64,000 nucleotides of DNA from Candidatus Melainabacteria bacterium (lineage in GTDB: Bacteria; Cyanobacteriota; Vampirovibrionia; 2-02-FULL-35-15), in NCBI GenBank assembly GCA_023250195.1, contig JAHFBF010000001.1, positions 498,422 to 562,421 on the forward strand, given 5' to 3'. Position 1 is the first letter of the stretch. Each line of letters opens with the position of its first letter. The notes beneath the pieces are model-generated. The model was not told where the DNA came from, did not search any database, and saw nothing but the letters and a program-made list of their open reading frames with translations. Below, piece by piece: positions 1-59,848 of the stretch. The translations under genes were made by a program, and so were the position numbers.

Positions 1-624
1 ATGAAATTGAACCGCAAGTAAGTTATCTTTTTTTATTATTGCTGTAAACCTTTCAGTGTCGTATTCTGTTTCCGCACAAATGATATTTTTATCCTCCGGG
101 ACTACATAATATGAGTGAACGAAATAATACTTATTCGTGTCATTGCGAGGAAGGCATAAGCCTGACGAAGCAATCTCATAATGTGAAACGGTTTGAGATC
201 CTTCGCTTTGCTCAGGATGACATTTTGTGGTTTGTGTACCACAAAATGTCACATCATTCCACCCAATATGTGGAACTTTTCTTGCTTTTTTAAACTTAAC
301 TACTTTCCCTTTAAATATTCCTAATCCCTTTTCTTCTGGATTTTCTTCACTATCTTCAAATAAAACCTGCATACCTACACATATTCCTAAAAATGGTTTT
401 GAATTTTTTGCTGATTTTATAATTATTTCCTGCAGGTTGTTCTTTTTAACTGCAGACATTACTGCACCAAATGCCCCTACACCGGGGAATATAACTGCAT
501 CTGATTTTTCTATTACTCCAATATCCTTTGTGATTTCAACATCTGCACCAATATATTTAAATGCTTTGTAAACACTGTGAAGATTACCGGAATCTGCATC
601 AATTAAAGATATATGTTTTTTCAT
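1..624 (-). CDS. hisH: Imidazole glycerol phosphate synthase glutaminase subunit HisH (3' end runs off window)
   Basis: My translation of the minus strand from ATG at 622-624 gives MKKHISLIDADSGNLHSV...FPGVGAFG...PFLGICVGMQVLFE...VPHIGWN...YFVHSYYV...LAVQFH. These are class-I GATase/HisH motifs. The frame stays open to position 1. It is absent from the ORF track because no stop lies in the window. Confidence 0.85.
   Translation of the reverse strand, partial: MKKHISLIDADSGNLHSVYKAFKYIGADVEITKDIGVIEKSDAVIFPGVGAFGAVMSAVKKNNLQEIIIKSAKNSKPFLGICVGMQVLFEDSEENPEEKGLGIFKGKVVKFKKARKVPHIGWNDVTFCGTQTTKCHPEQSEGSQTVSHYEIASSGLCLPRNDTNKYYFVHSYYVVPEDKNIICAETEYDTERFTAIIKKDNLLAVQFH
139..221. repeat. Palindromic MITE-like element (GTCATTGCGAGG family) inside the hisH coding frame
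   Basis: GTCATTGCGAGGAAG...ACGAAGCAATCTCA / TGAGATCCTTCGC...CTCAGGATGAC nested inverted repeats. Same architecture as the copies at 10501, 56613 and 59756. Confidence 0.8.
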
Positions 625-658: not shown

Positions 659-3175
659 TCATTTCACAACGATGTTTACTATTTTGTCAGGTACGACCAC
701 TACCTTGACAAGCTCCTTCCCATCTATTCGTGCTTTTACTTTTTCCAGACTCAGTGCAATTTTCTCAAGCTCTTTTTGAGACTGTCCTTTCTTTGTAGTT
801 AAAACATCTATCTTTTTCCCGCCCATCTGAATAACAAGTTCTATCTCATCTGTAACCAATGCCTGCTTATCGTATTCAGGCCACTTCTGCTGGTGGATAG
901 AATAAGGACCACCAAGTTTACCCCAGAGCTCTTCAGTAATATGAGGTGCTAATGGTGCTAAAAGCTTTAATAAATTTGTAAAAGAAAAACTCAGTATTGT
1001 ACTTTCTAAATCACTGTAAGATTTTTTATCTAAAATAAATTTATACATTGCATTTACAAGCTCTGTCATTCGCGCAATTGCAGTATTAAAAATATATTTC
1101 TCGGATGAAATATCTTCTGATACAGATTTAATAGTGTAATTTGCAATTCTATATATCTCATGTAGAGGCATCGCGCGCAACGCCTCTACATTGACAAATT
1201 CTTCGTAAATTTTTAATCCTGCATTTTCTTTTAGATTAAAAAATAGCCTCCAGATTCTTTCAATAAATCTATACTGCCCTATTGCACCCTGTGTAGACCA
1301 TTCAATCTCCTGCTCAGGCGGTGCTGCAAACAGAATAAATAATCTTGCCGCATCAGCACCATACTCATCAAAAAAATCTGTAGTGCCTACTACATTTCCT
1401 TTTGACTTTGACATCTTTGTAATTTTTTTTTCTTTTGGGCTGAACATTGTTACCATTCCCTGACTAAGAAGGTTTGTAAAAGGCTCATCAAAATTCAAGA
1501 GTCCAAAATCCCTGAAAGCTTTCGTAAAAAACCTTGAGTACAGAAGATGCAGTATGGCATGCTCTACTCCACCCACATATTGATCTACAGGCAGCCAGTA
1601 ATTTACTTTTTCTTTGTCAAAAGCTGCTTTATCGTTTCCAGCATCAGCATAACGAAGATAGTAATAACTTGAACAGATAAAAGTATCCATTGTATCTGTT
1701 TCACGTCTGGCTTCTCCACTGCATTTAGGACATTTTACACTAAGCCACTCCTTGGCTCGTAACAAAGGAGAACCTCCACTTCCTGTAAACTCAATTCCAG
1801 CTTCAGGAAGCATTACAGGCAAATTCTTTTCATCAACCGGAATTACACCACACTTATCACAATAAACTATTGGAATAGGACAACCCCAGTATCTTTGCCT
1901 GCTTATTAACCAGTCACGCAGACGATAAGTAGTTTTTGTTCTGCAAAAACCTTTTTTATTTCCATACTCAATGATTTTTTTCTTTCCATCGTCACTTTGC
2001 AATCCATTAAAAATATCTGAATTAATTATTAAACCAGGTTCAATATAAGCATTCGACAGCTCTCTTGCCAGTCCATCCGGTGAAATTACCTGTTTAATTT
2101 CCAGGTTGACTTTTTTAGCAAATTCAAAATCCCTACTATCATGTGCCGGCACACCCATTACAGCACCGGTACCATATTCAAGAAGCGTATAATCACTTAT
2201 CCATATTGGTATTTTTTGGTTATTAAATGGATTTACTGCATAGCTTCCAAGCAGTACTCCGGTTTTTTCTTTGTTTTCAGAAAGTCTTTCAATTTCACTT
2301 AAAAGACCAGCTTGTTTTATGTATGCCTGAACTTTTTCTTTGTTTTCACTTGTTGTAAGCTCGGATACAAATGGATGCTCCGGTGCTAAAACAAGAAACG
2401 TAACACCATAAATTGTATCGGGTCTTGTTGTATAAACAGGAATTTTAATATTTGATTTTTCAAAAACACTAAAATTAATTTCAGCACCTTCAGATTTGCC
2501 AATCCAGTTTTTCTGCATTCGCTTTACTCTTTCAGGCCATCCCTCTAATTTTTGAAGATCATTTAACAACTCTTCCGCGTACTGAGTAATCTTTAAAAAC
2601 CACTGACACATCATCTTACGCTCTACAAGAGTGTCATCATGCCTCCAGCATTTCCCATCTTCCACCTGTTCATTTGCTAAAACAGTCTGGCATTTTGGAC
2701 ACCAATTTACCGGTGCATCTTTTTGATAGGCAAGTTCATGTTTGTAAAATTGAAGAAATAACCATTGCGTCCATTTATAATAATCAGGACTACACGAAAC
2801 AACTTCTCTATCCCAGTCATAACTGGTCCCCATTCTCTTTAACTGTTTATTTTTCATGTGATCAATATTTTTTTTAGTCCATTCATATGGTGGTACTTTT
2901 CTTTCAATAGCAGCATTTTCAGCAGGAAGTCCAAAAGCATCAAAACCCATTGGATTTAGTACATTAAATCCAAGCATTCTTTTATGTCTGGATATTACAT
3001 CACTAATGGTATAAACCCTCATGTGACCCATATGGAGATCACCACTGGGATAAGGGAACATTACTAAGGAGTAATACTTGGATTTTTTATCAAAATCAAT
3101 GGCTTTATGAAGAGAGGTTTTTTCCCATTCTTCCTGCCATTTATATTCAATTTCTTTAGGTTTGTAGTCAGTCAT
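659..3175 (-). CDS. leuS: Leucyl-tRNA synthetase
   Basis: HMGH ([11 protein letters not shown]) and KMSKS (KMSKSKGN) class-I signatures with LeuS-type editing domain length. The maximal ORF reaches 3202, but [14 protein letters not shown] at 3175 matches the usual LeuS N-terminus. Confidence 0.96.
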
Positions 3176-3370
3176 ATAAGTTTTAATTATATTATGGAAC
3201 AAAACTATCAGGGTTGACTCTCATTTACTTGGAATGATTATATAGGTGAATTAATCGTGCTCCTACAATTGTTTTGCATAAGAGACAAAAGGGGAATAGT
3301 ATTAGCAAAGGGACATTAGTAGATAGCCCTAAAAACAAATCAATTTTAAAGATATAATACAAAAAGAGAT

Positions 3371-4030
3371 ATGAATCAAAGAAAAATAATCTTCAACTCT
3401 TTTATTTTCTGTATAAGCTTAATTATTTTTTACAGCTTCATCTACAGTGTATATGCCAACGAAGGAACTGAATCTTCCAGCGTAAAGATTGAAAGACACT
3501 TTGTTTTTGATACATTACCTTTAAACCTTGAAGAAATCACTTCTGCTGCAGGCCGAATATTTACCGGCATTTGTACCAATGTAGAAGAAATTGAAAATGA
3601 TCCGGAATCAAAACTGCCGGTAACTAAATATACATTTAAAATTACTGAAGCAATAAAAGGGCTACAGGGAAAAGAAGAAGTAACCTTTAAACAATGGAAG
3701 CCTACCACAAAAGATGCCAGTTACAAGGCAGGGGAAAAATATATTTTATTTTTATATCCTGACAGTGAAAGAGGATTAACAAGTCCAGTAGGATTCTTAC
3801 AGGGACAATTTGAAATTGAAAAGAAAGGACTTATAAGAAGAAGTGAAGTTGTTAGAAATAAATCCAGTAATAGAGGATTAAACAGAAATCTAAGAACACA
3901 AAAGAAAGTAGTTATTAATGAAGATAAGTACATAAATGATTATGTTGAAAGTTGTTCTGAACTTGGAATACCAATGAGATATCAAGAGTTTGTTAAAGCA
4001 GTGAGGTACTTAGAAAAAAGAGGAAAATGA
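3371..4030 (+). CDS. Secreted or membrane-anchored hypothetical protein, translationally coupled to the downstream metalloprotease
   Basis: N-terminal hydrophobic signal/anchor (IIFNSFIFCISLIIFYSFIYSVYA). The stop overlaps the next start (ATGA at 4027-4030). No recognisable catalytic motif. Confidence 0.6.
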   Translation: MNQRKIIFNSFIFCISLIIFYSFIYSVYANEGTESSSVKIERHFVFDTLPLNLEEITSAAGRIFTGICTNVEEIENDPESKLPVTKYTFKITEAIKGLQGKEEVTFKQWKPTTKDASYKAGEKYILFLYPDSERGLTSPVGFLQGQFEIEKKGLIRRSEVVRNKSSNRGLNRNLRTQKKVVINEDKYINDYVESCSELGIPMRYQEFVKAVRYLEKRGK

Positions 4031-5982
4031 AAAAGCTTTATCTATTTTTAGTCTTAGCTTTCTTTATAATAAGCTCTTTAAGTGCTTATGCAGGCGGCCC
4101 TTTAGTTGTAAAGAATGGAATGGCTATAACTTATGGCTCAAGGCCTCTTCTTTACAGGTTTGATCTGGGAACTCTCGGAATGCTTAGCAATGTCGAGGCA
4201 AGAGAGCTTTTTGAAGATCTGTTTTCAGATTGGAAAGCAGTCCCTACAGCATTAGATACTTTTAAACGTGATACTCCTGATTCTCTGGAATTTGATGTGA
4301 CTGCAAGCAATTTTGACTCGATTTTAAATTCAAATAGTCTTCTGGGATATACCCCTGTAGTTTTTGATACTGATGGTTCAGTATTAAATGCTTTCCTCGG
4401 GAATGGTGCAGCAAATTCTGTTCTTGGTTTATCCGGTCCCATCACTGTAAGCTCTGGTCCGCTGGCAAATCAGATTGCTGAATCACAGGCTGTTTTTAAC
4501 GGAAAGTTTATAGACGGTATTAATACTTCTACTAATCCTGAATCTACCACTGATTCTTTCAGGGGTACTATAATTCACGAGTTTGGACACGGGAGAGGGT
4601 TGGATCATTCACAGATAAATGTAGAAGCCATTAAACCAGGCTCAAGTCAGCAGCTTAGAGACACCGTTCCATTAATGTTTCCAGTTGCTGTAAATGACTT
4701 ATTTATAATTAGAAGAGATGATGCTTCTGCAATTTCTTCACTCTATCCAAATCAAAGTACAATAAGTGGTTTTGGAACTATAGAAGGAAAGCTCTTTAGA
4801 CAGGATGGAACAACACCAGTTCTAGGTGCAAATGTAATTGCAAGAAATATAAGTGATCCTACTCTAGAAGCAGTTTCATGTGTATCTGATTTTCTAATAG
4901 AGGGAAATGGTTTTTATAAGCTTTTTACAATTCCACCAGGACAATACACCATTGAAATAGAACCTGTTGATCTTTCATTTACCGGTGGTTCCGGAGTAGG
5001 ACCATATACTGCAAGCAAGACGGATAGATCATTCCAAAACCCTGTGACAAAAGGGTTTTACACAGGTCCAAATAAACCAATAACCTCAGATAAAACTCAG
5101 GCACTAATTGTTAACATAACTGCCGGACAGACAATAAAAGATGTAAATATTATTGCATCACAAACGACCTCTTCATCAAGTACCTCAAGCAGCGGTTCCG
5201 TTGAAATAAATGAAGTTGAACCAAATAATTCAGTTGGTGAATCTCAAATAATTACCCTGCCTATTACAATCTCCGGAAATATTGCAAAAGGAGATCCAGG
5301 AGAATTAGGATTAAATTCAGATGATGGTGAAATGATTATAATAAGTGATCTCTTTCAATTTACCCTCACACAGTCTGATTCAATAAATGCATTACTTACC
5401 TTTCCCGACGGTTCAAGTGATAGCGATCTTGATCTGATTTTATTCAGCTCAACTGGAGCAGAAATAATAGATGCCTCAAGTCAGACTGGAAAAACCGATG
5501 AATTGATCAGCTCTCCACTTCAAGCAGGTACTTATATTTTAGGAGTGGGTGCATTCTCAGGTTCTGCACCATATAAACTTTCAGTAACTAACTCAGGCAG
5601 TACACCACCATCTATAGCCCTCTTAGGTCCTTCCAGTATAGTTCTTAGCGATCTGGGAATGAACAACTTTAAAATTATAGTTGATGCTTCTAACTTCAAG
5701 TCTAAAGCTAACTGTAAAGTTAAAAAATCCAATGGCCAGCTTGTAAAAAACGAGGTTAAATCATTTCTACTGGACTCAGTTAGAACCAGTAAAAATATTA
5801 AATTTAAAGTCCCGCTTGCTAAAGCTATTGATTTTATAAATAACCAGACAGAAGAAACCGTTACAATATCTGTAATCTGTTCAAATGGAGCAAGTGACGA
5901 AATTGATGTTCTACTAACACCAAAAACTCAAGCAAGAGTAAAGAATCAAAAAGCCCGGCATATTTTAAGGATCAGGCAATAG
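4027..5982 (+). CDS. Secreted zinc metalloprotease (metzincin-type HExxHxxGxxH) with a pre-peptidase C-terminal (PPC)-like domain and an extra C-terminal domain
   Basis: Signal peptide (LVLAFFIISSLSAYA). HEFGHGRGLDH zinc motif. Ser/Thr linker SQTTSSSSTSSSGS. PPC-like segment EVEPNNSVGESQ...DLDLILFSSTG...GTYILGV. Confidence 0.8.
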   Translation: MKKLYLFLVLAFFIISSLSAYAGGPLVVKNGMAITYGSRPLLYRFDLGTLGMLSNVEARELFEDLFSDWKAVPTALDTFKRDTPDSLEFDVTASNFDSILNSNSLLGYTPVVFDTDGSVLNAFLGNGAANSVLGLSGPITVSSGPLANQIAESQAVFNGKFIDGINTSTNPESTTDSFRGTIIHEFGHGRGLDHSQINVEAIKPGSSQQLRDTVPLMFPVAVNDLFIIRRDDASAISSLYPNQSTISGFGTIEGKLFRQDGTTPVLGANVIARNISDPTLEAVSCVSDFLIEGNGFYKLFTIPPGQYTIEIEPVDLSFTGGSGVGPYTASKTDRSFQNPVTKGFYTGPNKPITSDKTQALIVNITAGQTIKDVNIIASQTTSSSSTSSSGSVEINEVEPNNSVGESQIITLPITISGNIAKGDPGELGLNSDDGEMIIISDLFQFTLTQSDSINALLTFPDGSSDSDLDLILFSSTGAEIIDASSQTGKTDELISSPLQAGTYILGVGAFSGSAPYKLSVTNSGSTPPSIALLGPSSIVLSDLGMNNFKIIVDASNFKSKANCKVKKSNGQLVKNEVKSFLLDSVRTSKNIKFKVPLAKAIDFINNQTEETVTISVICSNGASDEIDVLLTPKTQARVKNQKARHILRIRQ

Positions 5983-8582: not shown

Positions 8583-8632
8583 ATGTGCAGAGCGGTTATT
8601 AGGAAAAGGGAATAAATCGTTTTAATATTTAA

Positions 8633-8720
8633 AGGATTTGTCCGGTTCATCCGGCAAATCCGATCCAACGAAAGGGATTGACCGAAGGAAAGTTCAGCTT
8701 GTCTGAACTTATATAAAAAA
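8633..8720 (+). promoter_or_regulatory. Two-hairpin 5' element, copy 1, ending exactly at the ATG of the 8721 ORF
   Basis: GGATTTG-T-CCGG/TTCAT/CCGG-CAAATCC hairpin, then GTTCAG/CTTGT/CTGAAC hairpin, then TTATATAAAAAAATG. Confidence 0.65.
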
Positions 8721-8927
8721 ATGACATCAAGACGAAAATTTATGGGTTCAGATATCGATCTGGTTTTAAAGGGCGAGTTGGAAATAGATAAGTTCTGTGC
8801 CACAAGAAACGTCAGTCCACGAACTGCTTATATCTGGTGCTTAGAACGTGCCACCACCGAAGAACAACGTGAAAAAGTCAAACGTTGGATGAAGGAATAT
8901 TTTGATAAGGGTGTTGGGTTAATCTAG
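8721..8927 (+). CDS. Small hypothetical protein with a possible helix-turn-helix
   Basis: 68-aa ORF beginning right after element copy 1. The segment FCATRNVSPRTAYIWCLERA looks like a short HTH. Weak assignment. Confidence 0.45.
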   Translation: MTSRRKFMGSDIDLVLKGELEIDKFCATRNVSPRTAYIWCLERATTEEQREKVKRWMKEYFDKGVGLI

Positions 8928-8988
8928 TACAACTTAAGGAAGCTATTCAAACACAGATCTACAGACCTTAGAACGTATTTTCAAATAT

Positions 8989-9075
8989 AGGATTTGTCCA
9001 ATTTACTTGGCAAATCCGATCAATCACAGATACTGACCAATGGAAGCCTCAGCTTGTCTGAGGCATTATAAAAAA
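8989..9075 (+). promoter_or_regulatory. Two-hairpin 5' element, copy 2
   Basis: GGATTTG-T-CCAA/TTTAC/TTGG-CAAATCC and GCCTCAG/CTTGT/CTGAGGC. Both stems keep pairing through compensatory changes relative to copy 1. Ends ATTATAAAAAAATG. Confidence 0.65.
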
Positions 9076-9114
9076 ATGAAGGAATATTTTGATAAGGGTG
9101 TTGGGTTAATGTAG
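9076..9114 (+). pseudogene. 12-codon remnant duplicating the 3' end of the 8721-8927 ORF
   Basis: ATGAAGGAATATTTTGATAAGGGTGTTGGGTTAATGTAG is nearly identical to 8889-8927 (MKEYFDKGVGLI*). Confidence 0.55.
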
Positions 9115-9138
9115 TAGTGTATTGCAATACACCACTAC
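9111..9138. terminator. Perfect-arm hairpin between convergent genes (possible bidirectional terminator)
   Basis: GTAGTAGTGTATTG/CAATACACCACTAC, a 14-bp stem with one mismatch, between the + strand remnant and the stop of the minus-strand 9135 gene. No clear U-tract. Confidence 0.35.
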
Positions 9139-9753: not shown

Positions 9754-10479
9754 CTAACCCGTTATTTCAGTTTGTTTTTTAATAATTTCCAGGATTCCAT
9801 TATAAGCAAGCTCAACCATTTGATTAACGACACTTTGGCTAAAGGGCTTCCCTTCAGCAGTCATCTGAAGCTCAATAATCTGTCCTGATTTATTCATAAC
9901 TACATTACAGTCAACCTCTGCTTTTGAATCTTCATTATATGAAAGATCAAGTAAAAGCTCACCATTTACAATACCAACACTAACTGCACTAACCGGTTCT
10001 ATAAGAGGGATTTTTGTAATGAGTTTTTTCTCTTTCAATTTAGAAAGTGCTTTATAAACAGCTACAAATCCTCCACATATACTTGCAACTCTTGTAGAAG
10101 CATCTGCATTTATTACATCTGCATCAATAGAAATTGTTCTTGGTCCAAGTTCGTTTAAATTAAATGCAGCCCTCAGACTTCTTCCAATAAGTCTTTGAAT
10201 CTCACTTGTTCTTCCTGAAGGTTTCCCTTTTGTAACTTCTCTCTGGTTGCGTGGTCTTGTAGAACCCGGTAATAATGAGTATTCTGCAGTAAGCCAGCCT
10301 TTGCCTGTCCCTTCCAGAAAATGAGGCACCTTTTCCTCAATCATTGCAGTAACCAGAACTTTTGTCTGACCAAGTTCAACTAAAACTGACCCATCTGCAT
10401 TTGGTGTAAAATCCGGCTTAAAAATCAGCGGTCTCAGTTCATTATTTTTTCTATTATCTGTCCTTGACATATCAAACAT
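9754..10479 (-). CDS. rph: Ribonuclease PH
   Basis: RTDNRKNNELRP...ADGSVLVELGQTKVL...GRTSEIQRLIGRSLR...DCNVVM are typical RNase PH motifs. 241 aa. Confidence 0.95.
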   Translation of the reverse strand: MFDMSRTDNRKNNELRPLIFKPDFTPNADGSVLVELGQTKVLVTAMIEEKVPHFLEGTGKGWLTAEYSLLPGSTRPRNQREVTKGKPSGRTSEIQRLIGRSLRAAFNLNELGPRTISIDADVINADASTRVASICGGFVAVYKALSKLKEKKLITKIPLIEPVSAVSVGIVNGELLLDLSYNEDSKAEVDCNVVMNKSGQIIELQMTAEGKPFSQSVVNQMVELAYNGILEIIKKQTEITG

Positions 10480-10500: not shown

Positions 10501-10595
10501 GTCATTGCGAGCATCATAGGTGCGAAGCAGCCTCAAACTGTTTGCGTAAATTCGATCGAGATTGCCACGCCTTACTTTGTTCGGCTCGCAATGAC
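10501..10595. repeat. Palindromic MITE-like element (GTCATTGCGAG family), intergenic
   Basis: Perfect 12-bp termini GTCATTGCGAGC ... GCTCGCAATGAC, with inner GCGAAGCAGCCTC / GAGATTGCCACGC arms. Confidence 0.8.
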
Positions 10596-18639: not shown

Positions 18640-20538
18640 TTAATAAGTATAATTAGTTAATTTTACTCCTGAGCGATCTAGATAATCAAGCTCTATCTCT
18701 TCATGCTCACTCCATCCTTTAGAAGAAAGCAAAATATTCAACACCCCTTTACTCGAATCCAGAAAAACAATATCCGATTTAAAATCATTATCTATATCTG
18801 CAGAAAATATTTGTCCGGATAAATTGCTGTCTATTTGAATTTCAGGATTTAAGTTGTTTAAACTACTAGAATAAAATTTAAATTTTTTCTCAAGTAAATT
18901 AATAAAGCCTGGATCGGCAATAGTATCACCATCAAAATCTCCGGTTATTGGTACTAAGCTGTTTTTCGATATTATGTCTCCCAAGTTAATCTCTATTTCT
19001 TTAGAATCAGAAGATCGTTTTATAACAAACATATTCCTTTCAGGATCATAAATTGCAAAGTCATCTATATTATCACCATCATAATCACCAATTTGCGGTA
19101 TTCCTTTAGAGGTAACTTGCTTACTAAGGCTAATCAAATTAATGTTTTCTGGAGAAGATTTACCTAAAAAGCGAATATAGAATGTTTTAGATTTAGGTCT
19201 ATAAACTCCTATATCAGTAATATTATCACTATTGAAATTACCGATAAATGGCTTATCACACTCAAGACCAATAGGCAAAGCAAACTTCAGCCCTAATCTA
19301 CTTGAATCACACTTAAATACATTTGTATCTTTTGTCCACAAACAACAATCATTAACATAATCCCCATCAAAATCAGAAACAAAAGGAAAAGCATTATAGC
19401 TATTGTCCCATTTAAAATATTTTAACTTCTTATCATTTAAATTTTTGCTTATAAAACCACTTTTATTATAAAGCCATAAGACCAACTCATTCCCATAACC
19501 AACTACTGAACCTTTATTTAACTTATTTGTTAGAAGAAATTTCTGCAGAATAAAATTATTAACAGGAAAAGAATTGGTAATTTCAGAAAAGTGAAAAACC
19601 TTTTTCTTAAAAGAATCCTCCTTCAAATCAAAAGTTATAAGAACTTTTGAAGAGGCGTTCCAAAAAGCCAACTCACTTGCACCATCTCCATAATAATCAG
19701 CTTGCAAAGGAATAAAACTATCTTTACCAAGTTCTTTTTGGATCTTAGCTGTAATTTTCGGAGAAATTGGTCTTTGAAGTGTTGTAAGTATGACTTTTAT
19801 GGAATTGTCTTTAAAATTCCATACACACAAATCAGCTTTCCCGTCTCCATCATAATCAGAAGGTATTGGCAGAAATGAACTATCTCCAAGTTGCATTTCA
19901 TTAATTCTATTTTCTCTGGATAATTTAATGGTCCAAATGCCATTGTTTAAATTGTAAACAGCAAAATCACTTATTCCATCACCATCATAGTCCTTAACCA
20001 CAGGAATGTTTATGCCATTTCCAAGCTTAAAATTTATAACTCCTTTAGTTGAACTTAAAATTCCTTGAAAGGTATTAGTTTTTGATCTGTAAGTAACAAA
20101 GTCAAATTTGGTATCACCATCAAAATCTCCTACAATTGGTAAATCTCCAGCCTGCCCAAATTTAAAGTTAAAAACATTCTGCTTGGTCTTTATAATCCAC
20201 TCACCTTGACCTCTATAAATTCCATAGTCTAAAAAACTATCGTCATCAAAATATCCTACAAATGGGAAATCATTAATATCTCCAAAAGTAGACTTTAAAT
20301 AGTTGTTATTTTTAAAAGAGAGAGTTTCAAAAAAACAAGGTTCTAAAAATTTATTAAGCTTGGACATCGATGAAGTATTCCAAAAAATCAGGTCTGACCT
20401 TTTATCATCATCAATATCAAATGAATTATTGAGTTTATAGCTGGGCGAATTCACTGAAAGCAAACTGCTTTTATCATTGAAGCAGCCAAATAAAAAAAGA
20501 CTAAAGAAACAAAATAAAAAAAAGTTTTGAATCTTCAT
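18640..20538 (-). CDS. FG-GAP/VCBS repeat beta-propeller protein, exported (possible lipoprotein)
   Basis: Signal peptide ending LFLFGC. Many repeats of the Ca-binding-like motif D[YF]DGD[GT]xxD (DFDGDTKFD, DYDGDGISD, DYDGDGKAD, DFDGDYVND, DYDGDNIDD, DFDGDTIAD). Confidence 0.85.
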   Translation of the reverse strand: MKIQNFFLFCFFSLFLFGCFNDKSSLLSVNSPSYKLNNSFDIDDDKRSDLIFWNTSSMSKLNKFLEPCFFETLSFKNNNYLKSTFGDINDFPFVGYFDDDSFLDYGIYRGQGEWIIKTKQNVFNFKFGQAGDLPIVGDFDGDTKFDFVTYRSKTNTFQGILSSTKGVINFKLGNGINIPVVKDYDGDGISDFAVYNLNNGIWTIKLSRENRINEMQLGDSSFLPIPSDYDGDGKADLCVWNFKDNSIKVILTTLQRPISPKITAKIQKELGKDSFIPLQADYYGDGASELAFWNASSKVLITFDLKEDSFKKKVFHFSEITNSFPVNNFILQKFLLTNKLNKGSVVGYGNELVLWLYNKSGFISKNLNDKKLKYFKWDNSYNAFPFVSDFDGDYVNDCCLWTKDTNVFKCDSSRLGLKFALPIGLECDKPFIGNFNSDNITDIGVYRPKSKTFYIRFLGKSSPENINLISLSKQVTSKGIPQIGDYDGDNIDDFAIYDPERNMFVIKRSSDSKEIEINLGDIISKNSLVPITGDFDGDTIADPGFINLLEKKFKFYSSSLNNLNPEIQIDSNLSGQIFSADIDNDFKSDIVFLDSSKGVLNILLSSKGWSEHEEIELDYLDRSGVKLTNYTY

Positions 20539-20541
20539 ATT

Positions 20542-21516
20542 CTATTCATTTCTCTGTAATACTGAAATTGCAGAAACACAGTTACCCGGAACATTCCATT
20601 GATAGGAAAAAAGTTCCTGTTTTTTAAAGTTTAAAACATTCCATTTCTTTACACCTGGATCCCATGTAATAAGCTCAGGAATGCCATCTCCATCTATATC
20701 ACCTGAAGCTGGTATATCATTAACACCACCAAACTTTATTTCATTCTGGCTTCCATCTTTTGCATATTTAAAATACCATGTCTGATTAGATTTTCTCCAT
20801 AAAACAAGATCACATTTACCGTCACCATCATAATCATTAGGAACAATTATGTCCCATTCTTTGCCATGCTGGATGTGTTCAGTTTGATTGAAATTAAAAC
20901 TTGTGGTTGATTTAACTATATGCCAGACCCCATCATCAGGTCTCCAAACAATAAGATCTGATTTGCCATCTCCATCATAATCACCCGTAAAAGCAGAGTC
21001 CTGATATGAACCTTCATAAATTATCTTTGGAACTTTTCCTCCAGCCTCGCTGATATTGCTTAAATACCATCCACCTGCATTTGGCCTCCAAATACCTACA
21101 TCATAGCTTTTATCACCATCTATGTTACTTGGAATAGGCAAATCTCCTATACTCCCAACAAACATTTTCTTTGGGACTCCAACTCCACTTGTTAAATATA
21201 GAACCCACTCTCCGGAATCAGGCTGAAAAAATGTAAAATCTGTTTTTCCATCACCATCATAATCAGCAAAAACGGGTTGATAGGAAAGATTATTATCAAA
21301 AAATTGTTTCTCATAAAACTTACGATCTGAGGTTAATTGAAAATATAATTTGTTTGAATTTGAATCCCATACAGCTAAATCAGTTAATTTATCACCATCA
21401 AAATCACAACTGTAATATGACAGTGATGCAAATACTACTAACTTATCTTTCGTAAAATCAGTTAACCACATAGGAATAACAAACAAAAGCATACTCAGTA
21501 TGGCTGGGATCTTCAT
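20542..21516 (-). CDS. FG-GAP/VCBS repeat protein, exported
   Basis: N-terminal hydrophobic segment. Motifs DFDGDKLTD, DYDGDGKTD, DYDGDGKSD, DYDGDGKCD and DIDGDGIPE, each followed by W-containing strands. Confidence 0.85.
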   Translation of the reverse strand: MKIPAILSMLLFVIPMWLTDFTKDKLVVFASLSYYSCDFDGDKLTDLAVWDSNSNKLYFQLTSDRKFYEKQFFDNNLSYQPVFADYDGDGKTDFTFFQPDSGEWVLYLTSGVGVPKKMFVGSIGDLPIPSNIDGDKSYDVGIWRPNAGGWYLSNISEAGGKVPKIIYEGSYQDSAFTGDYDGDGKSDLIVWRPDDGVWHIVKSTTSFNFNQTEHIQHGKEWDIIVPNDYDGDGKCDLVLWRKSNQTWYFKYAKDGSQNEIKFGGVNDIPASGDIDGDGIPELITWDPGVKKWNVLNFKKQELFSYQWNVPGNCVSAISVLQRNE

Positions 21517-23348
21517 GGCACTAAAACCTCCACAGGAGAGGTATCTTTTGCAGGAATTTCCTGTTCTTTTTTAACAGCTGGAGGCTTCTTTCCCTGGAAA
21601 AAACTTGACAGCAAAAGAAGATATACAGCTAAAGCAGCAATACTAATATAAGCAGCCGCCTTTCTCACAGGAGTATGTTCAAATTTAATTTTTATTTGAT
21701 GTTTACCCGGCGGCACACGGAACATAATTAGACCAATCTTTGGTTCCATATTAACTTGAGTTTGGTTTTCATCAATATATACATTCCAACCGGGAAAATA
21801 AAAATTTCTTAGACTGATAAAATGTTCTCCCTGAGAAAAAACCTGAAACTCTCTTTCATGTGAAAGCCACTTTAAAAGAGTTATATCACAGGAAGGATCT
21901 GAAGAATTAATTGTTGGAGAAAAATCACGTCTAAAGTCAATTTGTTTCCAGTTTGGATTATTTGTTAAGTTGGGTCTGTATTCTTCATTTGGCCATAAAA
22001 CGTATAATCCGGCTTTCATAAGACTTTGTTCCGGTACCCATCTCCATTTATACATATTAATAAAATCAACATAAGCCAACCCTGCAAAAAGAAATGCAAT
22101 TGAAGCAAAAATGAACTTATACCCTGATAAATTAATTTTCTCTTTAGCAAGACAACCAACCAGATCAAAAGTGTAAACCATAATTACAGCACCAAATGGA
22201 ACAATAAACGTTGTAAACCTCCACGGGAATTGAATTGTCTGCATTGGTTTAATCATATGCCAAATAAAAAGAGATATTGGCGTCATCATTAAAAATGAAA
22301 TTACAAACATTGAAATTGCAATGTTGACTCTAAATGGTTCCTGAAAATATTGTTTAATCTTTCCTGTATTTAAGGACAAAACAACAATGCAAATTAGTAC
22401 TGCCAAGCCAAAGAGAGCATTACTCATTTCATAATATCTGTGATCAAAGATTGCCCAGGCAAAACCATCATCTCTATGTCTATCTAAATAAGTGTATAAA
22501 AAGTTTTTTGAAAAATCCCAGAGAGGCCCCTGTGTTAAAACTTCATCAGTATGAACAAATTTCTTTTCCAGGCATGCAGGAAATAAATAAAATCCGGCAA
22601 GAGAAGCACCCATTGCAAAGCTCAGAAGAATATTTTTTACAAACTTTTTTGTTCTGTGGAAATATAAATTAAACAAACAATAAGGGACAGCAAGCAGAGT
22701 GAAAACAAATGCAGTCGCCAAATGTGTCAAAGCTATTGCAGCATAACCAACCGAAATAATTAAAAATGATTTAAAATCAAAATCTTTATTTTTATCAAAT
22801 ATATCAATTCCATAATAAGTCAAAAATACAAATGCAACCGCCAGAGTACTGGTAGGCCAATTAGTGTTATAGATAAATATATGAATTGCCGGGGAAAAAA
22901 CCACAAATGCCATTGCAATTGAAGTTGAAAAGGCAGAGCCATGCCTTCTTAAATATAAATAACCAAACACAGAACAAAGAATCATTGGAATAACAAAAGT
23001 CCATTTAATGGCAAGGACTATATTCCTTAAAATCAAATCAAGTAAAATAAAAATATAATAAACAAGCGGAGCATAATAATTAAATATTGGAAGACCGGCA
23101 CCATTTACATCAGCATCAATCCATCTTGGCAGCCATTGCCCCTGCCAGAAGCATCTTTTAAAGTTATATGCATGTTCAATATGAATATGCCAGTCAGCAT
23201 GACTCGGAATCCCCTTACCAAAAATAATCGGAGCTGCTGAAAGAATCGTTAAAAGAGCAACAAAAAATATTCTTTCACTTCTTGATCCCAAGAAATGATA
23301 TGCTGAGCCTTTCTCCTCAGGTTTTTCTTGTATCTCATCAGCTTCCAA
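21513..23348 (-). CDS. Polytopic membrane protein, GT-C-like (YfhO / PTPS-related membrane glycosyltransferase type)
   Basis: At least 12 predicted TM helices. N-terminal loop HADWHIHIEHAYNF...WLPRWIDADVNGAGLPIFNYYAPLVYY. C-terminal soluble module FYFPGWNVYIDENQ...VPPGKHQIKIKF is typical of the YfhO/PTPS-related family. Confidence 0.7.
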   Translation of the reverse strand: MEADEIQEKPEEKGSAYHFLGSRSERIFFVALLTILSAAPIIFGKGIPSHADWHIHIEHAYNFKRCFWQGQWLPRWIDADVNGAGLPIFNYYAPLVYYIFILLDLILRNIVLAIKWTFVIPMILCSVFGYLYLRRHGSAFSTSIAMAFVVFSPAIHIFIYNTNWPTSTLAVAFVFLTYYGIDIFDKNKDFDFKSFLIISVGYAAIALTHLATAFVFTLLAVPYCLFNLYFHRTKKFVKNILLSFAMGASLAGFYLFPACLEKKFVHTDEVLTQGPLWDFSKNFLYTYLDRHRDDGFAWAIFDHRYYEMSNALFGLAVLICIVVLSLNTGKIKQYFQEPFRVNIAISMFVISFLMMTPISLFIWHMIKPMQTIQFPWRFTTFIVPFGAVIMVYTFDLVGCLAKEKINLSGYKFIFASIAFLFAGLAYVDFINMYKWRWVPEQSLMKAGLYVLWPNEEYRPNLTNNPNWKQIDFRRDFSPTINSSDPSCDITLLKWLSHEREFQVFSQGEHFISLRNFYFPGWNVYIDENQTQVNMEPKIGLIMFRVPPGKHQIKIKFEHTPVRKAAAYISIAALAVYLLLLSSFFQGKKPPAVKKEQEIPAKDTSPVEVLVP

Positions 23349-23355
23349 TTTTTTA

Positions 23356-24135
23356 CTACCCCTTTATTCCTGAATCTGTAATATTATACTTATAAAGAAA
23401 CCGTATTTTTAAAACCTCAACTAGCATTTTTACAGAATCTCTAAAAATATTAACCTTTGAGCCCTCAATATGATACCAGTTTATAGGGACTTCTTTAATC
23501 TTGTAACCAAATTTTTTTAAAAGAAACAGATATTCAATATCAAAGGAGAATCCAAAGCATTTTTGATTTTCTGCTAATTTTTTAGCAGCATCCATTCTAA
23601 ATAATTTAAAGCCGCACTGGGTATCTTTCAGAGAAGCAAGACCTAAAATGCTTAAAACTAAATGAAAGACTCTTCCTGTAAGTCTCCTTGTAAATGACAT
23701 GGAAACTTTTGTATCTTTGTCTTTTATTACCCTTGATCCAATTGCAGCATCGTAATCAGATTTTATAGCCTCTAGCAATTTTTGTACTTCATTAATTGGT
23801 GCAGCACCATCTGCATCTGTATATAAAACAATTGAATTTGAAGCCTTTAAAAACCCCAGGTTTACTGCATAACCTTTCCCCCTATTAGGCATATAACCAG
23901 TTAATTGAAAACATTTTTTATTTTTGCTTTCATTTTGAATCCAGCCATTTACCACCCCTGACGTATTGTCAGTACTTCCATCATTTACAATTATTACTTG
24001 GAATAAATCCGGCTTGGAAATTTTACTTATATAACTATCGATATCATTTAAGGCTTTTGTAATTCTGCTTGATTCATTAAATGCAGGAATAATAATAGTA
24101 ATGGAGCTGCTTAATTTATGATTCAAATTTCTCAC
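23356..24135 (-). CDS. GT2 polyprenyl-phosphate glycosyltransferase (DPM1/Alg5/CsbB-like)
   Basis: IIIPAFNES...IVNDGSTDNT...YTDADGA...QCGFKLF. Short (259 aa) soluble GT-A. Confidence 0.85.
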   Translation of the reverse strand: MRNLNHKLSSSITIIIPAFNESSRITKALNDIDSYISKISKPDLFQVIIVNDGSTDNTSGVVNGWIQNESKNKKCFQLTGYMPNRGKGYAVNLGFLKASNSIVLYTDADGAAPINEVQKLLEAIKSDYDAAIGSRVIKDKDTKVSMSFTRRLTGRVFHLVLSILGLASLKDTQCGFKLFRMDAAKKLAENQKCFGFSFDIEYLFLLKKFGYKIKEVPINWYHIEGSKVNIFRDSVKMLVEVLKIRFLYKYNITDSGIKG

Positions 24136-44246: not shown

Positions 44247-45373
44247 TTTTTTACCAGGTTAGTGGCTTTTCTAAGCACATTTTGTTTTTTCATTACTTCT
44301 TCAATTTCCTGATATCTGTCTTTTAAATCAGGTTGTTCATAAACCCATTTTATATAATCTCGGAATATATCTTCTAACGAGTGTTCATTTTTCCAACTAA
44401 GTTTTTTAAGTTTCTCACTTATAGAAACTGTATGCCTGGTATCACCATATCGATAGTAACCCGGAATTAGCGGCTCAATCTTTTTGTTTAAAACACTAAT
44501 TAAAATTTTCGTGTATTCTAAAAGATCTGTCCCTTTTTCACCACCTACATTAAAAGCTTCATAGTCAGCTTGAGAACTCTCAAATGCAAGAACATTCGCT
44601 CTTGCTACATCAAGGACATGAACATAATCTCTAAGTTGCTTTCCATCTTCATAAATAACCGGCGGTTTATTATTTATAAGCCTAAGAGTAAATATTCTAC
44701 AAACACCAGAATATGCATTAAAGAATGAATTTCTTGGACCCTGAACAATAGAATACCTCATCGAAACAGTTGGAATTGAATATCTTTTACCCAACTTGAC
44801 TGCTAATCTTTCCAATGCTTCTTTTGATATCCCATAAGCTGTAAAAGGATTGGTTACTGCTTCATCTATCAGAACAGACTTCATATACTCTTTACATCCA
44901 GCAACAGGACAATATATTTCCCAATCAGAACTTTCTAATTGTTTGATAATTCTACTGTCAGGATATTGAACGCCATGAGTTTTGCAATTATATTTTCCTT
45001 CACCATAAATTGACTGAGAGGAAGCTAAAACGATTTTCTTTATATCCAATTTTTTTTCAACTATAATTTCAAATATAAGTGCCGTACTAAAAGTATTCAC
45101 CCTGATAAAATTGCTAAAGTCAGTCATATAATCCTGGTAAGCAGCTAAATGAAATATTCCTTCAACACCTTCCATTGCTTTTTCTAAAACTGCCTTATCA
45201 GATACATCTCCCTGGATAAACTCTACTTCAGAAGATAAATATTTAGGTTTTCCATAAGGGTGGACTCTTGGTTGGAGCAAATCCAAGACTTTAACTTTGT
45301 ATCCTTTTTTAAGCAAAAGATCTACAGTATGAGATCCTATAAACCCTGCGCCACCTGTAACTAATACTTTCAT
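44243..45373 (-). CDS. NAD-dependent nucleotide-sugar epimerase/dehydratase (extended SDR)
   Basis: VLVTGGAGFIGSH and YGISK. ATG at 45373 (MKVLVTGG) is preferred, because the longer TTG start at 45394 lies inside the upstream hairpin element. Confidence 0.85.
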   Translation of the reverse strand: MKVLVTGGAGFIGSHTVDLLLKKGYKVKVLDLLQPRVHPYGKPKYLSSEVEFIQGDVSDKAVLEKAMEGVEGIFHLAAYQDYMTDFSNFIRVNTFSTALIFEIIVEKKLDIKKIVLASSQSIYGEGKYNCKTHGVQYPDSRIIKQLESSDWEIYCPVAGCKEYMKSVLIDEAVTNPFTAYGISKEALERLAVKLGKRYSIPTVSMRYSIVQGPRNSFFNAYSGVCRIFTLRLINNKPPVIYEDGKQLRDYVHVLDVARANVLAFESSQADYEAFNVGGEKGTDLLEYTKILISVLNKKIEPLIPGYYRYGDTRHTVSISEKLKKLSWKNEHSLEDIFRDYIKWVYEQPDLKDRYQEIEEVMKKQNVLRKATNLVKK

Positions 45374-45460
45374 CTTTTTTATAGGTTCAGACAAGCTGAA
45401 CCTTCCTTCTGTTATTTCCTTTCGCAGGATCGGATTTGCCGGATAAACCGGACAAATCCT
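45374..45460 (-). promoter_or_regulatory. Two-hairpin 5' element, copy 4, ending at the ATG of the epimerase/dehydratase gene
   Basis: The reverse complement reads AGGATTTGTCCGGTTTATCCGGCAAATCCGATCCTGCGAAAGG...GGTTCAGCTTGTCTGAACCTATAAAAAAGATG. Very close to copy 1. Confidence 0.65.
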
Positions 45461-45545
45461 ATAGTTGAGATTCGATATGTCATAGTGTTTGTTATTCTAA
45501 AGTATTATATACTGTTTTGAATAATAAGAAAAGAATCTAAGAAAT

Positions 45546-51768: not shown

Positions 51769-51878
51769 AAATTTTTCGAGGATAGTTGTCATTCCCGCGA
51801 AAGCGGGAATCCAGAAAAGTAACGATTTCGATAATTTACTGGATTCCTGGTCAAGCCAGGAATGACATCCTCGAATTT
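51769..51878. mobile_element. Non-autonomous palindromic element (GTCATTCCCGCGAAAGCGGGAATCC type) with terminal inverted repeats and flanking direct repeat
   Basis: TIRs AAATTTTTCGAGGAT / ATCCTCGAATTT. Core GTCATTCCCGCGAAAGCGGGAATCCAG ... CTGGATTCCTGGTCAAGCCAGGAATGAC. Flanks CTTACAAATATGAT (51747-51760) and CTTACAAAcccaaaTATGAT (51879-51898). No coding capacity. Confidence 0.6.
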
Positions 51879-56216: not shown

Positions 56217-57917
56217 TTACTCTATCTGCTTTGCACCTAAAAGTTCGCTAACTGCATTTGTAAAATCATCGCTTGAACGTGCAGTATGAATATTAGCTTT
56301 TAGTTCAACCTTAGCCTCAGGTAATTTACTGGTTTCAACAAACAATTCGCGCTTTGTTTGCCTTGGAACCACTTTAAATCTGATTAATTTTGGATCAAGC
56401 CCAGAAGCTATGTTCACAGCTTTTAAAATCATTTCTTTTTTCTTGGCATCCTGATCTAATCTTGGTAAGAACATATCTTTTGATAACCCTACTTCAACAA
56501 TTTCTTTTGTTAATTGCAGTAAATAACTTTCAGACTGGGCAAGTAGAGTTTTTGTAGGATTGCTTTCAATAAGACCAACTATTCTTTGCCATAATATATC
56601 TAAATCTGAGTTGTCATTGCGAGGAGGCTCTGAAAGAGCCGACGAAACAATCTCCTTACTCTCGTGTAAAGATTGTGAGATTGCTTCGTCGCTCACCGCC
56701 ACGCCTTCGGCTCGCGGCTTCGGCTCCTCGCAATGACGTGCAGCCTTAGGTTGCTCTTTTATATTTTCTCCAACTCTTCCTGTCTCAAGTTTTTCAATTC
56801 TTATCTTAAGTTCAGAAACAGATACTAAAAAATCTTCATCAAGCATACTCATAATATCAGCCATAAACTGCAACTCCTGACTAAGAGCAAAACGTAATTT
56901 AGACTGTGTATCATGAAGTCTGTCTATAATTTTAAGTATATGTTCCTGACTAACTTTATCCAATATATTTAAATCACCTGACAATTCAAGTTTAAGTTTG
57001 TTTTTATAGCCAGGATCAATTTTTGCTTTTGCAAGATCAATTATCAATTCGAGCAGATCCTTGAACAATTCACTTATATCCTTCCCGCTCTTTATCAGCT
57101 CTTCCGCTAAATCAATAGATTCCTTTCTGTTAAAACTTAACACCGATTCAATTAGTTTAAATAAGCTTGTTCTATGTACAATTCCAAACAATTCAAAGAC
57201 TTCACTTGAAGAAATTGGTTTGTTTTCTACTTGTAGAACACTAATTTGATCCAGAAGAGAGACTGCATCCCGTAAACAGCCATTTGATCTTTTTGCAATA
57301 AAACTAATTACAGTTTCATCAATATTTATTTTTTCTTTATTTGTAATTTCCTTCACTCTTTTTTCAAGTTTTTCCTGGGAAATCGGCTTAAAATCTAATT
57401 TCTGGCATCTGCTTATAATAGTTGGTATTATTTTATATTCCTCTGTAGTAGCCAGAATAAATATTACATTTTTCGGTGGTTCTTCCAGAGTTTTTAAAAG
57501 AGCATTAAATGCATGATCAGTCAGCATATGGACTTCATCAATTATATAAATCTTAAAGCGCGATCCATATGTGCCAAGATTAACTCTGTTAATTAAATCT
57601 TCAGCATCTTCTACTTTTCTGTGACTTGCTGCATCTATTTCTATAACATCCAGAGAATTGCCATTAGTTATAGACTGGCAGCTCACACATTGTCCACATG
57701 GTTCCACAGTAATCCCTGATTCACAATTTAAAGACTTTGCAAGTATTCTTGCAGTAGAAGTTTTTCCGGTACCACGCGGACCACAAAAAAGATAAGCATG
57801 AACAATTTTATTATAAGCAATTGCATTTGAAAGCGTTCTAGTAACTACATCCTGACCTACAAGCTCAGAGAGTTTTTGAGGACGATATTTTAAGTATAGT
57901 GGCTGGTATTGTTTCAT
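56217..57917 (-). CDS. dnaX: DNA polymerase III subunit gamma/tau
   Basis: YRPQKLSELVGQ, Walker A GPRGTGKTS, zinc module CESGITVEPCGQCVSC, DEVHML, SRCQ. ATG at 57917 (MKQYQPLYLKYRPQ) is preferred over the GTG at 57935. Confidence 0.95.
   Translation of the reverse strand: MKQYQPLYLKYRPQKLSELVGQDVVTRTLSNAIAYNKIVHAYLFCGPRGTGKTSTARILAKSLNCESGITVEPCGQCVSCQSITNGNSLDVIEIDAASHRKVEDAEDLINRVNLGTYGSRFKIYIIDEVHMLTDHAFNALLKTLEEPPKNVIFILATTEEYKIIPTIISRCQKLDFKPISQEKLEKRVKEITNKEKINIDETVISFIAKRSNGCLRDAVSLLDQISVLQVENKPISSSEVFELFGIVHRTSLFKLIESVLSFNRKESIDLAEELIKSGKDISELFKDLLELIIDLAKAKIDPGYKNKLKLELSGDLNILDKVSQEHILKIIDRLHDTQSKLRFALSQELQFMADIMSMLDEDFLVSVSELKIRIEKLETGRVGENIKEQPKAARHCEEPKPRAEGVAVSDEAISQSLHESKEIVSSALSEPPRNDNSDLDILWQRIVGLIESNPTKTLLAQSESYLLQLTKEIVEVGLSKDMFLPRLDQDAKKKEMILKAVNIASGLDPKLIRFKVVPRQTKRELFVETSKLPEAKVELKANIHTARSSDDFTNAVSELLGAKQIE
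56613..56737. repeat. Palindromic MITE-like element (GTCATTGCGAGG family) inside the dnaX coding frame
   Basis: GTCATTGCGAGGAGGC...CGACGAAACAATCTC // GAGATTGCTTCGTCG...GGCTCCTCGCAATGAC. It is translated as RHCEEPKPRAEGVAVSDEAISQSLHESKEIVSSALSEPPRNDN. Confidence 0.8.
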
Positions 57918-57951
57918 GGTTGCCAATGTAGGCACGTAGCATGCTACGTAC

Positions 57952-59755: not shown

Positions 59756-59848
59756 GTCATTGCGAGGGCTTCAGCCCGAAGCAATCTCCCTAACTTATTC
59801 ACGTTTGTGAGATTGTTTCGTCGGGACTTTGTCCCTCCTTGCAATGAC
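59756..59848. repeat. Palindromic MITE-like element (GTCATTGCGAGG family), intergenic between valS and dxr
   Basis: GTCATTGCGAGGGCTTCAGCCCGAAGCAATCTC ... GAGATTGTTTCGTCGGGACTTTGTCCCTCCTTGCAATGAC. It ends 9 nt upstream of the dxr start codon. Confidence 0.8.

Follow-up and report, generated by a model that had tools for sequence, protein, structure and literature searches.

Palindromic repeat units in one loop of HisH from a Candidatus Melainabacteria bacterium: a probable case of translated and tolerated insertions

Introduction

Can short palindromic repeats lodge inside the gene of a conserved enzyme, be translated with it and leave the enzyme working? This question is raised by hisH, at one end of a 64,000-nt stretch of DNA (hereafter the window) from a Candidatus Melainabacteria bacterium (assembly GCA_023250195.1, contig JAHFBF010000001.1, positions 498,422 to 562,421). 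A preliminary description of the window had placed an 83-bp palindromic element at positions 139-221, in frame within this gene. This article describes the nature of the insert, the state of its host gene, the equivalent site in related HisH proteins and the kinship of the repeats with known families. The insert very probably consists of repetitive extragenic palindromic (REP) units with CGTC or TGTC tags, situated in the tight beta-turn between the GWND and KYYFVHSY motifs of HisH, translated with the protein and tolerated as a disordered loop of about 36 residues.

An insertion in the hisH gene

Positions 1..624 of the window (minus strand) belong to hisH, which encodes the glutamine amidotransferase subunit of imidazole glycerol phosphate synthase (NCBIfam TIGR01855, E 3.5e-56). 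The ATG lies at 624 and codons 1-208 of 227 are visible, the left end of the gene being cut by the window edge. Translation of the minus strand from 624 matches the peptide PHIGWNDVTFCGTQTTKCHPEQSEGSQTVSHYEIASSGLCLPRNDTNKYYFVHSY exactly, with 0 stops, and the in-frame repeat at 139-221 was found as first described, the DNA reading GTCATTGCGAGG...CTCAGGATGAC and encoding the peptide that had been quoted for it. The full-length protein (P0001, 227 aa, C-terminal end QFHPEKSGNAGLEFLNNFIKNF) and the locus L083 are identical to the window, and the same hisH DNA is also present on longer public contigs (L083 and L084).

The site was compared with that of the 103 closest proteins from a collection of 5.8 billion proteins, three of which carry a source label, in all cases Candidatus Melainabacteria; both anchor motifs could be located in 92 of them. 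The loop comprises only 2-7 residues (empty) in 34 of these 92 orthologs, and 58, about 60%, bear an insert. Among the empty ones is P0012 (locus L081), the protein with the flanks most similar to those of the window HisH (85%), which reads GWNDV-NGE-KYYFVHSY. The DNA of this site is TGG AAT GAT GTG AAT GGA GAA AAA TAT TAT in L081 and TGG AAT GAT GTG ACA TTT TGT ... CGC AAT GAC ACG AAT AAG TAT TAT in the window. By codon comparison of the two, the segment absent from the empty ortholog extends over 136..249 (minus strand), where 114 nt are extra and 6 nt (the Gly-Glu codons) are lost; the net gain is 108 nt, or 36 codons, and not the 28 codons proposed at first. In the window HisH 42 residues separate GWN from YYFVHSY, and the predicted protein contains peptides spanning the insert junction, e.g., CHPEQSEGSQTVSHYEIASSGLCLPR. 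Solved HisH structures (1ka9, 1gpw, 1kxj) align to window residues 5-130 and 164-208, with 3-7 residues between the two blocks versus 33 in the window protein.

Since the closest ortholog is empty, the hisH segment is an insertion. The alignment with orthologs that the preliminary description had proposed as a check thus shows the equivalent segment to be missing from 34 of 92 proteins, P0012/L081 included, and together with the 3-7 residues of the solved structures this rules out a native HisH sequence. More generally, the idea that native sequence or an assembly artefact merely resembles a repeat has in its favor only that hisH is cut by the window edge. It is opposed by the empty orthologs, the solved structures, the exact repeat termini and the identity of independent assemblies, so that it can practically be dismissed. 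The same 227-aa protein is encoded by 5 contigs from at least 4 samples, and the insert is therefore not an artefact of assembly. The genome is present in the samples ERZ27280021, ERZ27280116, ERZ27296333 and ERZ27301951. Removal of the segment in the manner of an intron or intein was also considered and rejected: no positive evidence for it was encountered, and the frame is open in all 58 insert-bearing orthologs, which would be needless if the segment were spliced out. As its total length is divisible by three and no stop occurs in frame, the segment would be transcribed and translated together with hisH.

Composition of the insert

The 83 bp are an inverted heterodimer of two REP units with their tags outward, accompanied by a secondary hairpin. 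The first unit (A type, 139..177, plus strand) has a (T)GTC tag, an ATTGC...GCAAT outer stem, a variable inner hairpin, GGCATAAGCC, and a CTC tail; on the coding strand, where its layout is GAG-ATTGC-...-GCAAT-GAC, it encodes EIASSGLCLPRND. A 17-nt spacer (178..194, no strand assigned) follows, which encodes part of QTVSHY and contains the motif GTTTCACAT, found again in opposite orientation in the spacer of the copy at locus L087. The second unit (B type, 195..221, minus strand) reads (T)GTC-ATCCT-GA-GC-AAA-GC-GA-AGGAT-CTC and encodes CHPEQSEGS; its architecture is that of the A unit, with a compensatory outer stem (ATCCT/AGGAT). The side hairpin (215..251, no strand assigned) encodes TFCGTQTTK and forms, in the DNA fold, a perfect 14-bp stem (TGACATTTTGTGGT / ACCACAAAATGTCA) with a 6-nt loop. 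Its source is a 21-nt inverted duplication, GGT ACA CAA ACC ACA AAA TGT, situated upstream of the B unit where this meets hisH.

The earlier view of the 83 bp as one palindromic element is therefore to be modified: the repeat character stands and the single palindrome does not, as the outer ends, of A type (GTCATTGCGAGG) and B type (GTCATCCTGAGC), are not mutually complementary. Each arm folds on its own, which indicates a heterodimer of two intact units, and the notion of a chimera of one palindrome was dropped on the same grounds. As a single strand, the insert region folds strongly (z-score -4.9). The B end has no other occurrence in the 74 kb of this genome that were examined, and complete B dimers occupy the same hisH site in L086 and L088. 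These pure B alleles lack the side hairpin, which at the protein level is common to P0003 and P0006.

State of the gene and fold of its product

The insert-bearing hisH looks functional, judging from purifying selection, an intact catalytic triad, a confidently modeled core and recurrence across samples. The ratio of nonsynonymous to synonymous substitution rates (dN/dS) between the window hisH and the empty ortholog L081 is 0.10, with a dS of 0.87. The catalytic residues Cys82, His208 and Glu210 are present in P0001, and their columns are invariant in an alignment of 43 orthologs; the earlier statement that the frame is open and the catalytic motifs are intact is borne out by these residues and by the absence of stops from 624 on. 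The protein was modeled by AlphaFold2 with the ortholog alignment, and the predicted local distance difference test (pLDDT) score is about 90 for residues 1-110, about 80 for 170-227 and below 50 for 116-169, the insert region. The target-normalized TM-score of the model against solved HisH is 0.81-0.86, and all top Foldseek matches are HisH.

A different reading is that this hisH is inactive, a young pseudogene, and that histidine comes from another hisH copy or from the environment. The 36-residue insert replaces a tight NG turn near residues of the interface with HisF, and hisH does not adjoin other his genes here, both of which would fit such a loss. A full-length open reading frame (ORF), intact catalytic residues, a dN/dS of 0.10 and an identical allele in at least 4 samples stand against it, as does the fact that dozens of related lineages keep an intact, insert-bearing hisH. 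We therefore regard loss of function as very unlikely, and a degraded hisH pseudogene was rejected on the dN/dS value, the triad, the recurrence in at least 4 samples and the confident AlphaFold core. The preferred reading, that the element is tolerated as a peptide insertion, agrees with the intact gene, the same dN/dS and the confidently modeled core, as the preliminary description had suggested.

Many inserts in one HisH loop

Across the 92 orthologs, 2 to 65 aa make up the loop that joins the GWND strand to the KYYFVHSY strand; in the empty ones the connection is a tight N-G turn. Other segments are nearly constant: 111-113 aa from GxGN to GWN in 86 of 87 orthologs and 40 aa from YFVHS to QFHPE in 89 of 89, so that nearly all internal length variation of HisH (92 orthologs) falls in this one loop. 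The inserts found there include A dimers (VIARSEATKQS...EIASSGLRLPRND), B dimers in two frames (CHPERSEGS...APQDD and CHPELKVKDL...SLRMT), the variant LTARSDSDEAV...ARND in L001, GTAG-type palindromes (IPVGALHATPLQ), one double-length insert and many short remnants. They have neither sequence nor length (8-65 aa) nor reading frame in common. P0003 and P0006 have the side hairpin and the B unit without the A unit, while P0021 retains what appears to be a remnant of the A unit alone. In a tree of the masked protein, the filled alleles are interspersed with the empty ones. A pair with near-identical flanks is formed by P0011 (L087 3001-3663, filled) and P0033 (empty), which come from different samples, share all 123 residues that precede the loop and show 2 differences near the C-terminus; the loop reads VNSS-[A dimer]-TSCQ in P0011 and AGGKK in P0033. 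This pair is a recent presence/absence polymorphism, not a simple insertion.

L001, a metagenome-assembled genome of Melainabacteria from Rifle groundwater, is one close relative recovered by a pattern scan for AVQFHPEK, among the matches listed; besides a diverged dimer in the HisH loop, it has two same-orientation A-type heads directly after the hisH stop, at 10669 and 10707. A native palindrome immediately upstream of the site, ATTCCAC-N7-GTGGAAT (codons IPH..GWN), was considered as a target for insertion and discarded as a sufficient explanation, as it is present in L081, the window and L086 and weak or absent in L085, L087 and L088.

If the inserts are tolerated selfish DNA filtered by selection, only those that are in frame, free of stops and situated in a permissive loop would survive in an essential gene. 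The outcome in the window would be the addition of about 36 mostly polar residues to an otherwise intact glutaminase subunit. The B unit may have come first, with the side hairpin, as in P0003 and P0006; the A unit would then have joined it, or have disappeared from those relatives. Once resident, a repeat would probably make further insertions more likely, along with exchange between copies and decay through deletions, which would explain why so many different inserts are found in one loop.

The heterodimer could also have arisen as a hybrid, by homologous recombination between one hisH allele with a B dimer, the source of the left part, and another with an A dimer, the source of the right part, instead of by stepwise insertion of single units. 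The right arm is identical to that of the A allele of L085 at 37 of 39 nt, though 44% of synonymous sites differ in the flanks. Codons derived from GTG border the insert, as GTG to its left and as ACG to its right, which would be expected if A elements sit before the GTG and B elements after it, and P0011 and P0033 suggest a cassette-like exchange of the loop. In terms of identity of the N- and C-terminal flanks, the nearest relative does not switch across the insert, a test that is not discriminating; the similarity of the arm may just reflect the repeat consensus, a heterodimer of different units is also found at 51787-51867 of the window, and single units occur alone in P0003, P0006 and P0021. 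An origin by recombination thus remains a serious candidate, although we consider stepwise insertion the more plausible route.

The location of the loop deserves attention in its own right. Trp122, 4 residues ahead of the start of the insert, is aligned with Trp123 of Thermotoga maritima HisH, a hinge contact with HisF Arg249 (PMC12828452). At its other end, the insert stops about 4 residues before Tyr167, a residue of the active-site plug that aligns to Tyr138, one of two positions altered in 2wjz, a constitutively active variant. This raises the possibility of co-option, in which a flexible segment near Trp122 and Tyr167 tunes the complex or its allostery, or the hairpins affect the mRNA, and the insert is kept by selection. 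The concentration of all internal length variation in one loop that is filled in about 60% of orthologs would be compatible with such a role, and so would the two interface residues flanking the site and the strong folding of the insert region. On the other hand, the inserts are unrelated in sequence, length and frame and are predicted to be disordered, decayed remnants and deletions are frequent (P0003, P0006, P0021), filled and empty alleles occur in near-identical backgrounds, and the same repeats are found in unrelated genes and between genes. Taken together, these points make co-option improbable.

Tolerance of a translated insert thus remains the favored explanation, and several observations weigh against it. 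The dN/dS covers the entire divergence from L081, with a high dS of 0.87, and a very recent loss of function is compatible with it; the activity of the window allele is accordingly presumed from its sequence. With two residues of the HisH-HisF interface about 4 residues away, a harmless surface loop is not self-evident. The earlier expectation of a surface loop on the structure holds as far as the insert is predicted to be disordered (pLDDT below 50); that the added loop points into the solvent is suggested by the model, in which confidence is also low for the native residues 116-125, and the proximity of Trp122 and Tyr167 calls for caution. The codons flanking the loop differ between P0011 and P0033, and this case is consequently not a clean insertion. 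The distribution of the units suggests that they are mobile. The search for target-site duplications, which covered 8 nt of flank at about 85 metagenome copies as well as the surroundings of the window copies, found none, and no transposase was met alongside, in DNA whose ORFs were not screened for HUH/Y1 or other transposases. With these points in mind, we infer that the hisH insert is translated in vivo and neutral.

The choice of this loop could reflect structural tolerance, exchange of alleles, or repeats landing on or replacing resident repeats. In a bolder version, palindromes of the CGTC type, and even of the GTAG type, land preferentially in the HisH loop, the allele series of this loop records movement without a transposase (by insertion next to a hairpin or by template switching), and in some lineages the loop may also tune glutaminase coupling. 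This proposal is speculative and we judge it unlikely; if true, the filled, empty, hybrid and remnant alleles record how transposase-less repeats move.

Other copies in the window and in other genes

The 11-mer GTCATTGCGAG occurs 6 times in the window versus 0.03 expected from shuffles. As had been reported, the family is also intergenic in the window, with complete A-type copies at 10501-10595 and 59756-59848. The A-type dimer at 10501..10595 (no strand assigned) adjoins the ORF 9754-10479, which from its translation we take to be RNase PH-like. The one at 59756..59848 (no strand assigned) forms a long hairpin with two side hairpins (fold z-score -7.4) and is flanked by genes that, judging from their translations, are presumably dxr and valS. 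Another A-type dimer (56613..56737, minus strand) is in frame within dnaX (56217-57935, minus), which encodes DNA polymerase III gamma/tau; it corresponds to residues about 400-441, encodes HCEEPKPRAEGVAVSDEAISQSLHESKEIVSSALSEPPRND and has a fold z-score of -5.9. It follows the conserved N-terminal part of the protein, lying past the end of the dnaX_nterm profile (residue 364), and the NCBIfam PRK05563 match (residues 9-542) spans it. The fifth dimer (51787..51867, no strand assigned) is intergenic and is an inverted pair of canonical CGTC-type units, both with a TGTC tag and a CCA tail: TGTC-ATTCCCGC-GAAA-GCGGGAAT-CCA and TGTC-ATTCCTGG-CTTGA-CCAGGAAT-CCA. It is also a heterodimer, and its first unit (51788-51813) would translate as VIPAKAGI. 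Two of the five dimers of the window, those of hisH and dnaX, are therefore inside genes and in frame.

In metagenome contigs, in-frame copies with Pfam-confirmed host genes were found in four cases. The host is a class I lysyl-tRNA synthetase that also has a B3/4 domain in L165, a PFL-like enzyme in L127 and, in L163, a SAM methyltransferase, the domain of which is cut in two by the repeat. The fourth is the 821-codon frame of L121, in which an A dimer (1688-1780), likewise in frame, separates a DAO plus BFD-like [2Fe-2S] part from a Pyr_redox_2 part. In the latter case, neighboring genes may have been fused by read-through of the repeat. Long ORFs over copies in high-GC contigs looked spurious and were left uncounted.

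Other repeats are present in the window. A GTAG-type palindrome, GTAGAGGCATCGCGCGCAACGCCTCTAC, lies at 1162-1189 within leuS (659-3202, minus), in frame as a 10-residue peptide. LeuS orthologs have the same length here (L088, VEALHATPLQ; L087, VEMHGHTSLR; L086, DKLEDPVLK), so the palindrome occupies this stretch without lengthening it; peptides of this type also occur in the HisH loop of other species. Three direct partial copies of another repeat are located at 8613-9116, with an inverted copy near 45375-45463 (89 nt, 88% complementary; region 45359-45468) and hairpins of the form GGATTTGTCCGG...CCGGCAAATCC. The minus-strand ORFs at 18640-25707 are large and adjacent, with repeat periods of about 135-290 nt and a common CCATCACCATCATAATCA core (families D1-D5), and probably encode repeat-domain surface proteins.

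Architecture and distribution of the repeats

Metagenome contigs of the Joint Genome Institute (JGI) were scanned with the pattern GTCATTGCGAG-N65-95-CTCGCAATGAC, and at least 120 stretches were found, on contigs of 31-69% GC. The conserved blocks of the A copies are GTCATTGCGAG, CGAAGCAATC, GATTGCTTCG and CTCGCAATGAC, between which lie a variable hairpin, a variable spacer and a second variable hairpin; this architecture is common to 153 arms from 88 elements. The units are 20-66 nt long: an outer stem of 5 bp is followed by an internal loop of GA/GAA and then by an inner stem-loop that is variable. Of 123 distinct arms, 98 form the ATTGC/GCAAT outer stem in their minimum-free-energy fold, and the inner stem varies with its pairing kept. 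The base before GTCAT is C in 88, T in 68, A in 6 and G in 6 of 168 ends (85 distinct A elements; 52% and 40% for C and T), and it is T or C in the window copies. After GCAAT, the tail is CTC in 60 (40%), CCA in 54 (36%) and CCC in 13 of 149 cases; the A and B units of the window have CTC, and the canonical units CCA. All complete copies are inverted dimers with the tags outward.

In Rfam, the whole window gave no match at gathering thresholds, and two of the copies gave none even at E up to 10. The insert peptides are too short for profile searches of the 5.8 billion proteins, and these yielded no more than 10 small hypothetical ORFs, which were uninformative as to host genes. No relevant account turned up in full-text searches for the ends of the element and its typical peptides. 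Likewise, about 1.2 Mb of loci from other phyla, including about 25 loci of oxygenic cyanobacteria, contained no paired A or B elements. Some contigs show more complex arrangements. L108 contains at 3969-5020 a tandem array with a 121-nt period, in which eight A dimers are each followed by the 33-nt hairpin CCCGTGGTAATAGTCGACGGCTTTTGCCACGCC, so that the A element can also be amplified in tandem. In the high-GC contigs L094, L132 and L143, some A arms hold a nested GGAGCCTGTCATCGGGCG(C/G)GCATTC(A/G)C(C/G)CGACCCG(T/G)TGGC in place of the small hairpin, that is, repeats inserted within repeats.

Relationship with known repeat families

REPs of the CGTC type are known from several phyla, mostly as inverted dimers and with no dedicated transposase (Di Nocera, De Gregorio, Rocco 2013, BMC Genomics 14:522; PMC3733652). 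They carry a CGTC tag, often TGTC, a stem that begins with A-T and T-A pairs and a 3-nt tail near CCA, and their intragenic in-frame copies add 20-30 aa to housekeeping genes, including those for tRNA synthetase and DNA replication or repair (PMC3733652). According to Di Nocera, two of the Rickettsia palindromic elements (RPEs) of Rickettsia conorii belong here, RPE-6 being CGTC-1 and RPE-4 being CGTC-4 (PMC3733652).

The units described in this article have the same (C/T)GTC tag, A-T/T-A start of the stem, CCA or CTC tail, outward inverted dimers and in-frame copies. Further, VIPAKAGI is the peptide listed for CGTC-1 units of R. conorii (supplement of PMC3733652), and a unit of this type lies at 51788-51813 of the window. 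The dimer of the R. conorii gene RC0378 encodes SFLRKQESSKNLKNKSFIIFLDSRFRRND (SFLRKQES...DSRFRRND; PMC3733652); this peptide and the copies studied here both end in ...RND because the AATGAC end is common to them. The described stem, in contrast, has 8-9 bp with a loop of 4-5 nt, whereas in A and B units a G/A-rich internal loop separates an outer stem of 5 bp from a variable inner stem; the minimal 22-nt unit has the overall size of CGTC-3 and CGTC-4 without complementarity in its inner part. The phyla given in PMC3733652 do not include Melainabacteria, and the A and B peptides (VIARSEATKQS, CHPE...) are missing from its table of R. conorii intragenic copies. Given a stem geometry unlike that of the four described CGTC families, the A and B units would be additional families or variants outside them. 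As tag, stem, tail and dimer layout fit the CGTC superfamily, to which RPE-4 and RPE-6 belong, the parallel with RPEs drawn in the preliminary description is probably one of kinship, beyond analogy, and hence stronger than first put.

Like RPEs, these are short palindromic repeats that occur in frame in unrelated, apparently functional housekeeping genes, where they would be translated as extra peptides compatible with the fold. They differ in the host phylum and in lifestyle, the host being free-living or environmental here and obligately intracellular in the case of RPEs. The unit sequences also differ: the A and B peptides are outside the RPE families, and only the intergenic VIPAKAGI unit at 51788-51813 matches. 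Classic RPE-1 has about 150 bp and a conserved peptide, versus the widely varying peptides found here (Ogata et al. 2000, Science 290:347; 2002, Genome Res 12:808; summarized in PMC10969869). For RPEs, no account of different repeat types recurring at one orthologous site was met in the literature covered.

REPINs and the GTAG REPs mobilized by RAYT tyrosine transposases (PMC3733652, PMC3184786) resemble the present elements in having two inverted REP units that form a hairpin of about 90-120 nt, in being non-autonomous, in lacking target-site duplications and in forming single-strand hairpins; they differ in that the tag here is (C/T)GTC and not GTAG, the GTAG palindrome of leuS being a separate family. 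No RAYT gene flanked by A or B units was seen in the DNA examined, in which no systematic search for one was made. Bacterial miniature inverted-repeat transposable elements such as ERIC, Correia, Nezha and QMITE1 of Coxiella are also small, non-coding and dispersed, have terminal inverted repeats and are occasionally fused in frame (PMC10969869, PMC5896051). Unlike these, the present elements showed no target-site duplication in about 85 copies and are modular stem-loops rather than ends of insertion sequences (IS). In-frame translated palindromic repeats are thus an established phenomenon, of which hisH would be a further example (RPEs and intragenic REPs; PMC3733652, PMC10969869).

We know of no parent IS with matching ends, although no search for an IS with GTCATTGCGAG ends was made. 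Neither do we know of a mobilizing enzyme for CGTC-type REPs.

Implications

The ATTGCGAG-ended repeat is very widespread, on contigs of 31-69% GC, and no description of it was found in the literature searched. Inserts of this kind lengthen predicted proteins and create spurious small ORFs, and may mislead annotation and alignment. With hisH, protein-coding palindromic repeats, familiar above all from Rickettsia, are met in Melainabacteria as well, a non-photosynthetic sister group of the cyanobacteria. The case stands out for the many inserts in one enzyme loop across a clade, for the position of this loop beside interface residues and for an apparently undescribed ATTGCGAG unit. The series of loop alleles among close relatives (empty, single unit, homodimer, heterodimer and decayed remnant) provides material on the insertion and decay of CGTC-type repeats, and can show how a conserved enzyme tolerates insertions beside a protein-protein interface.

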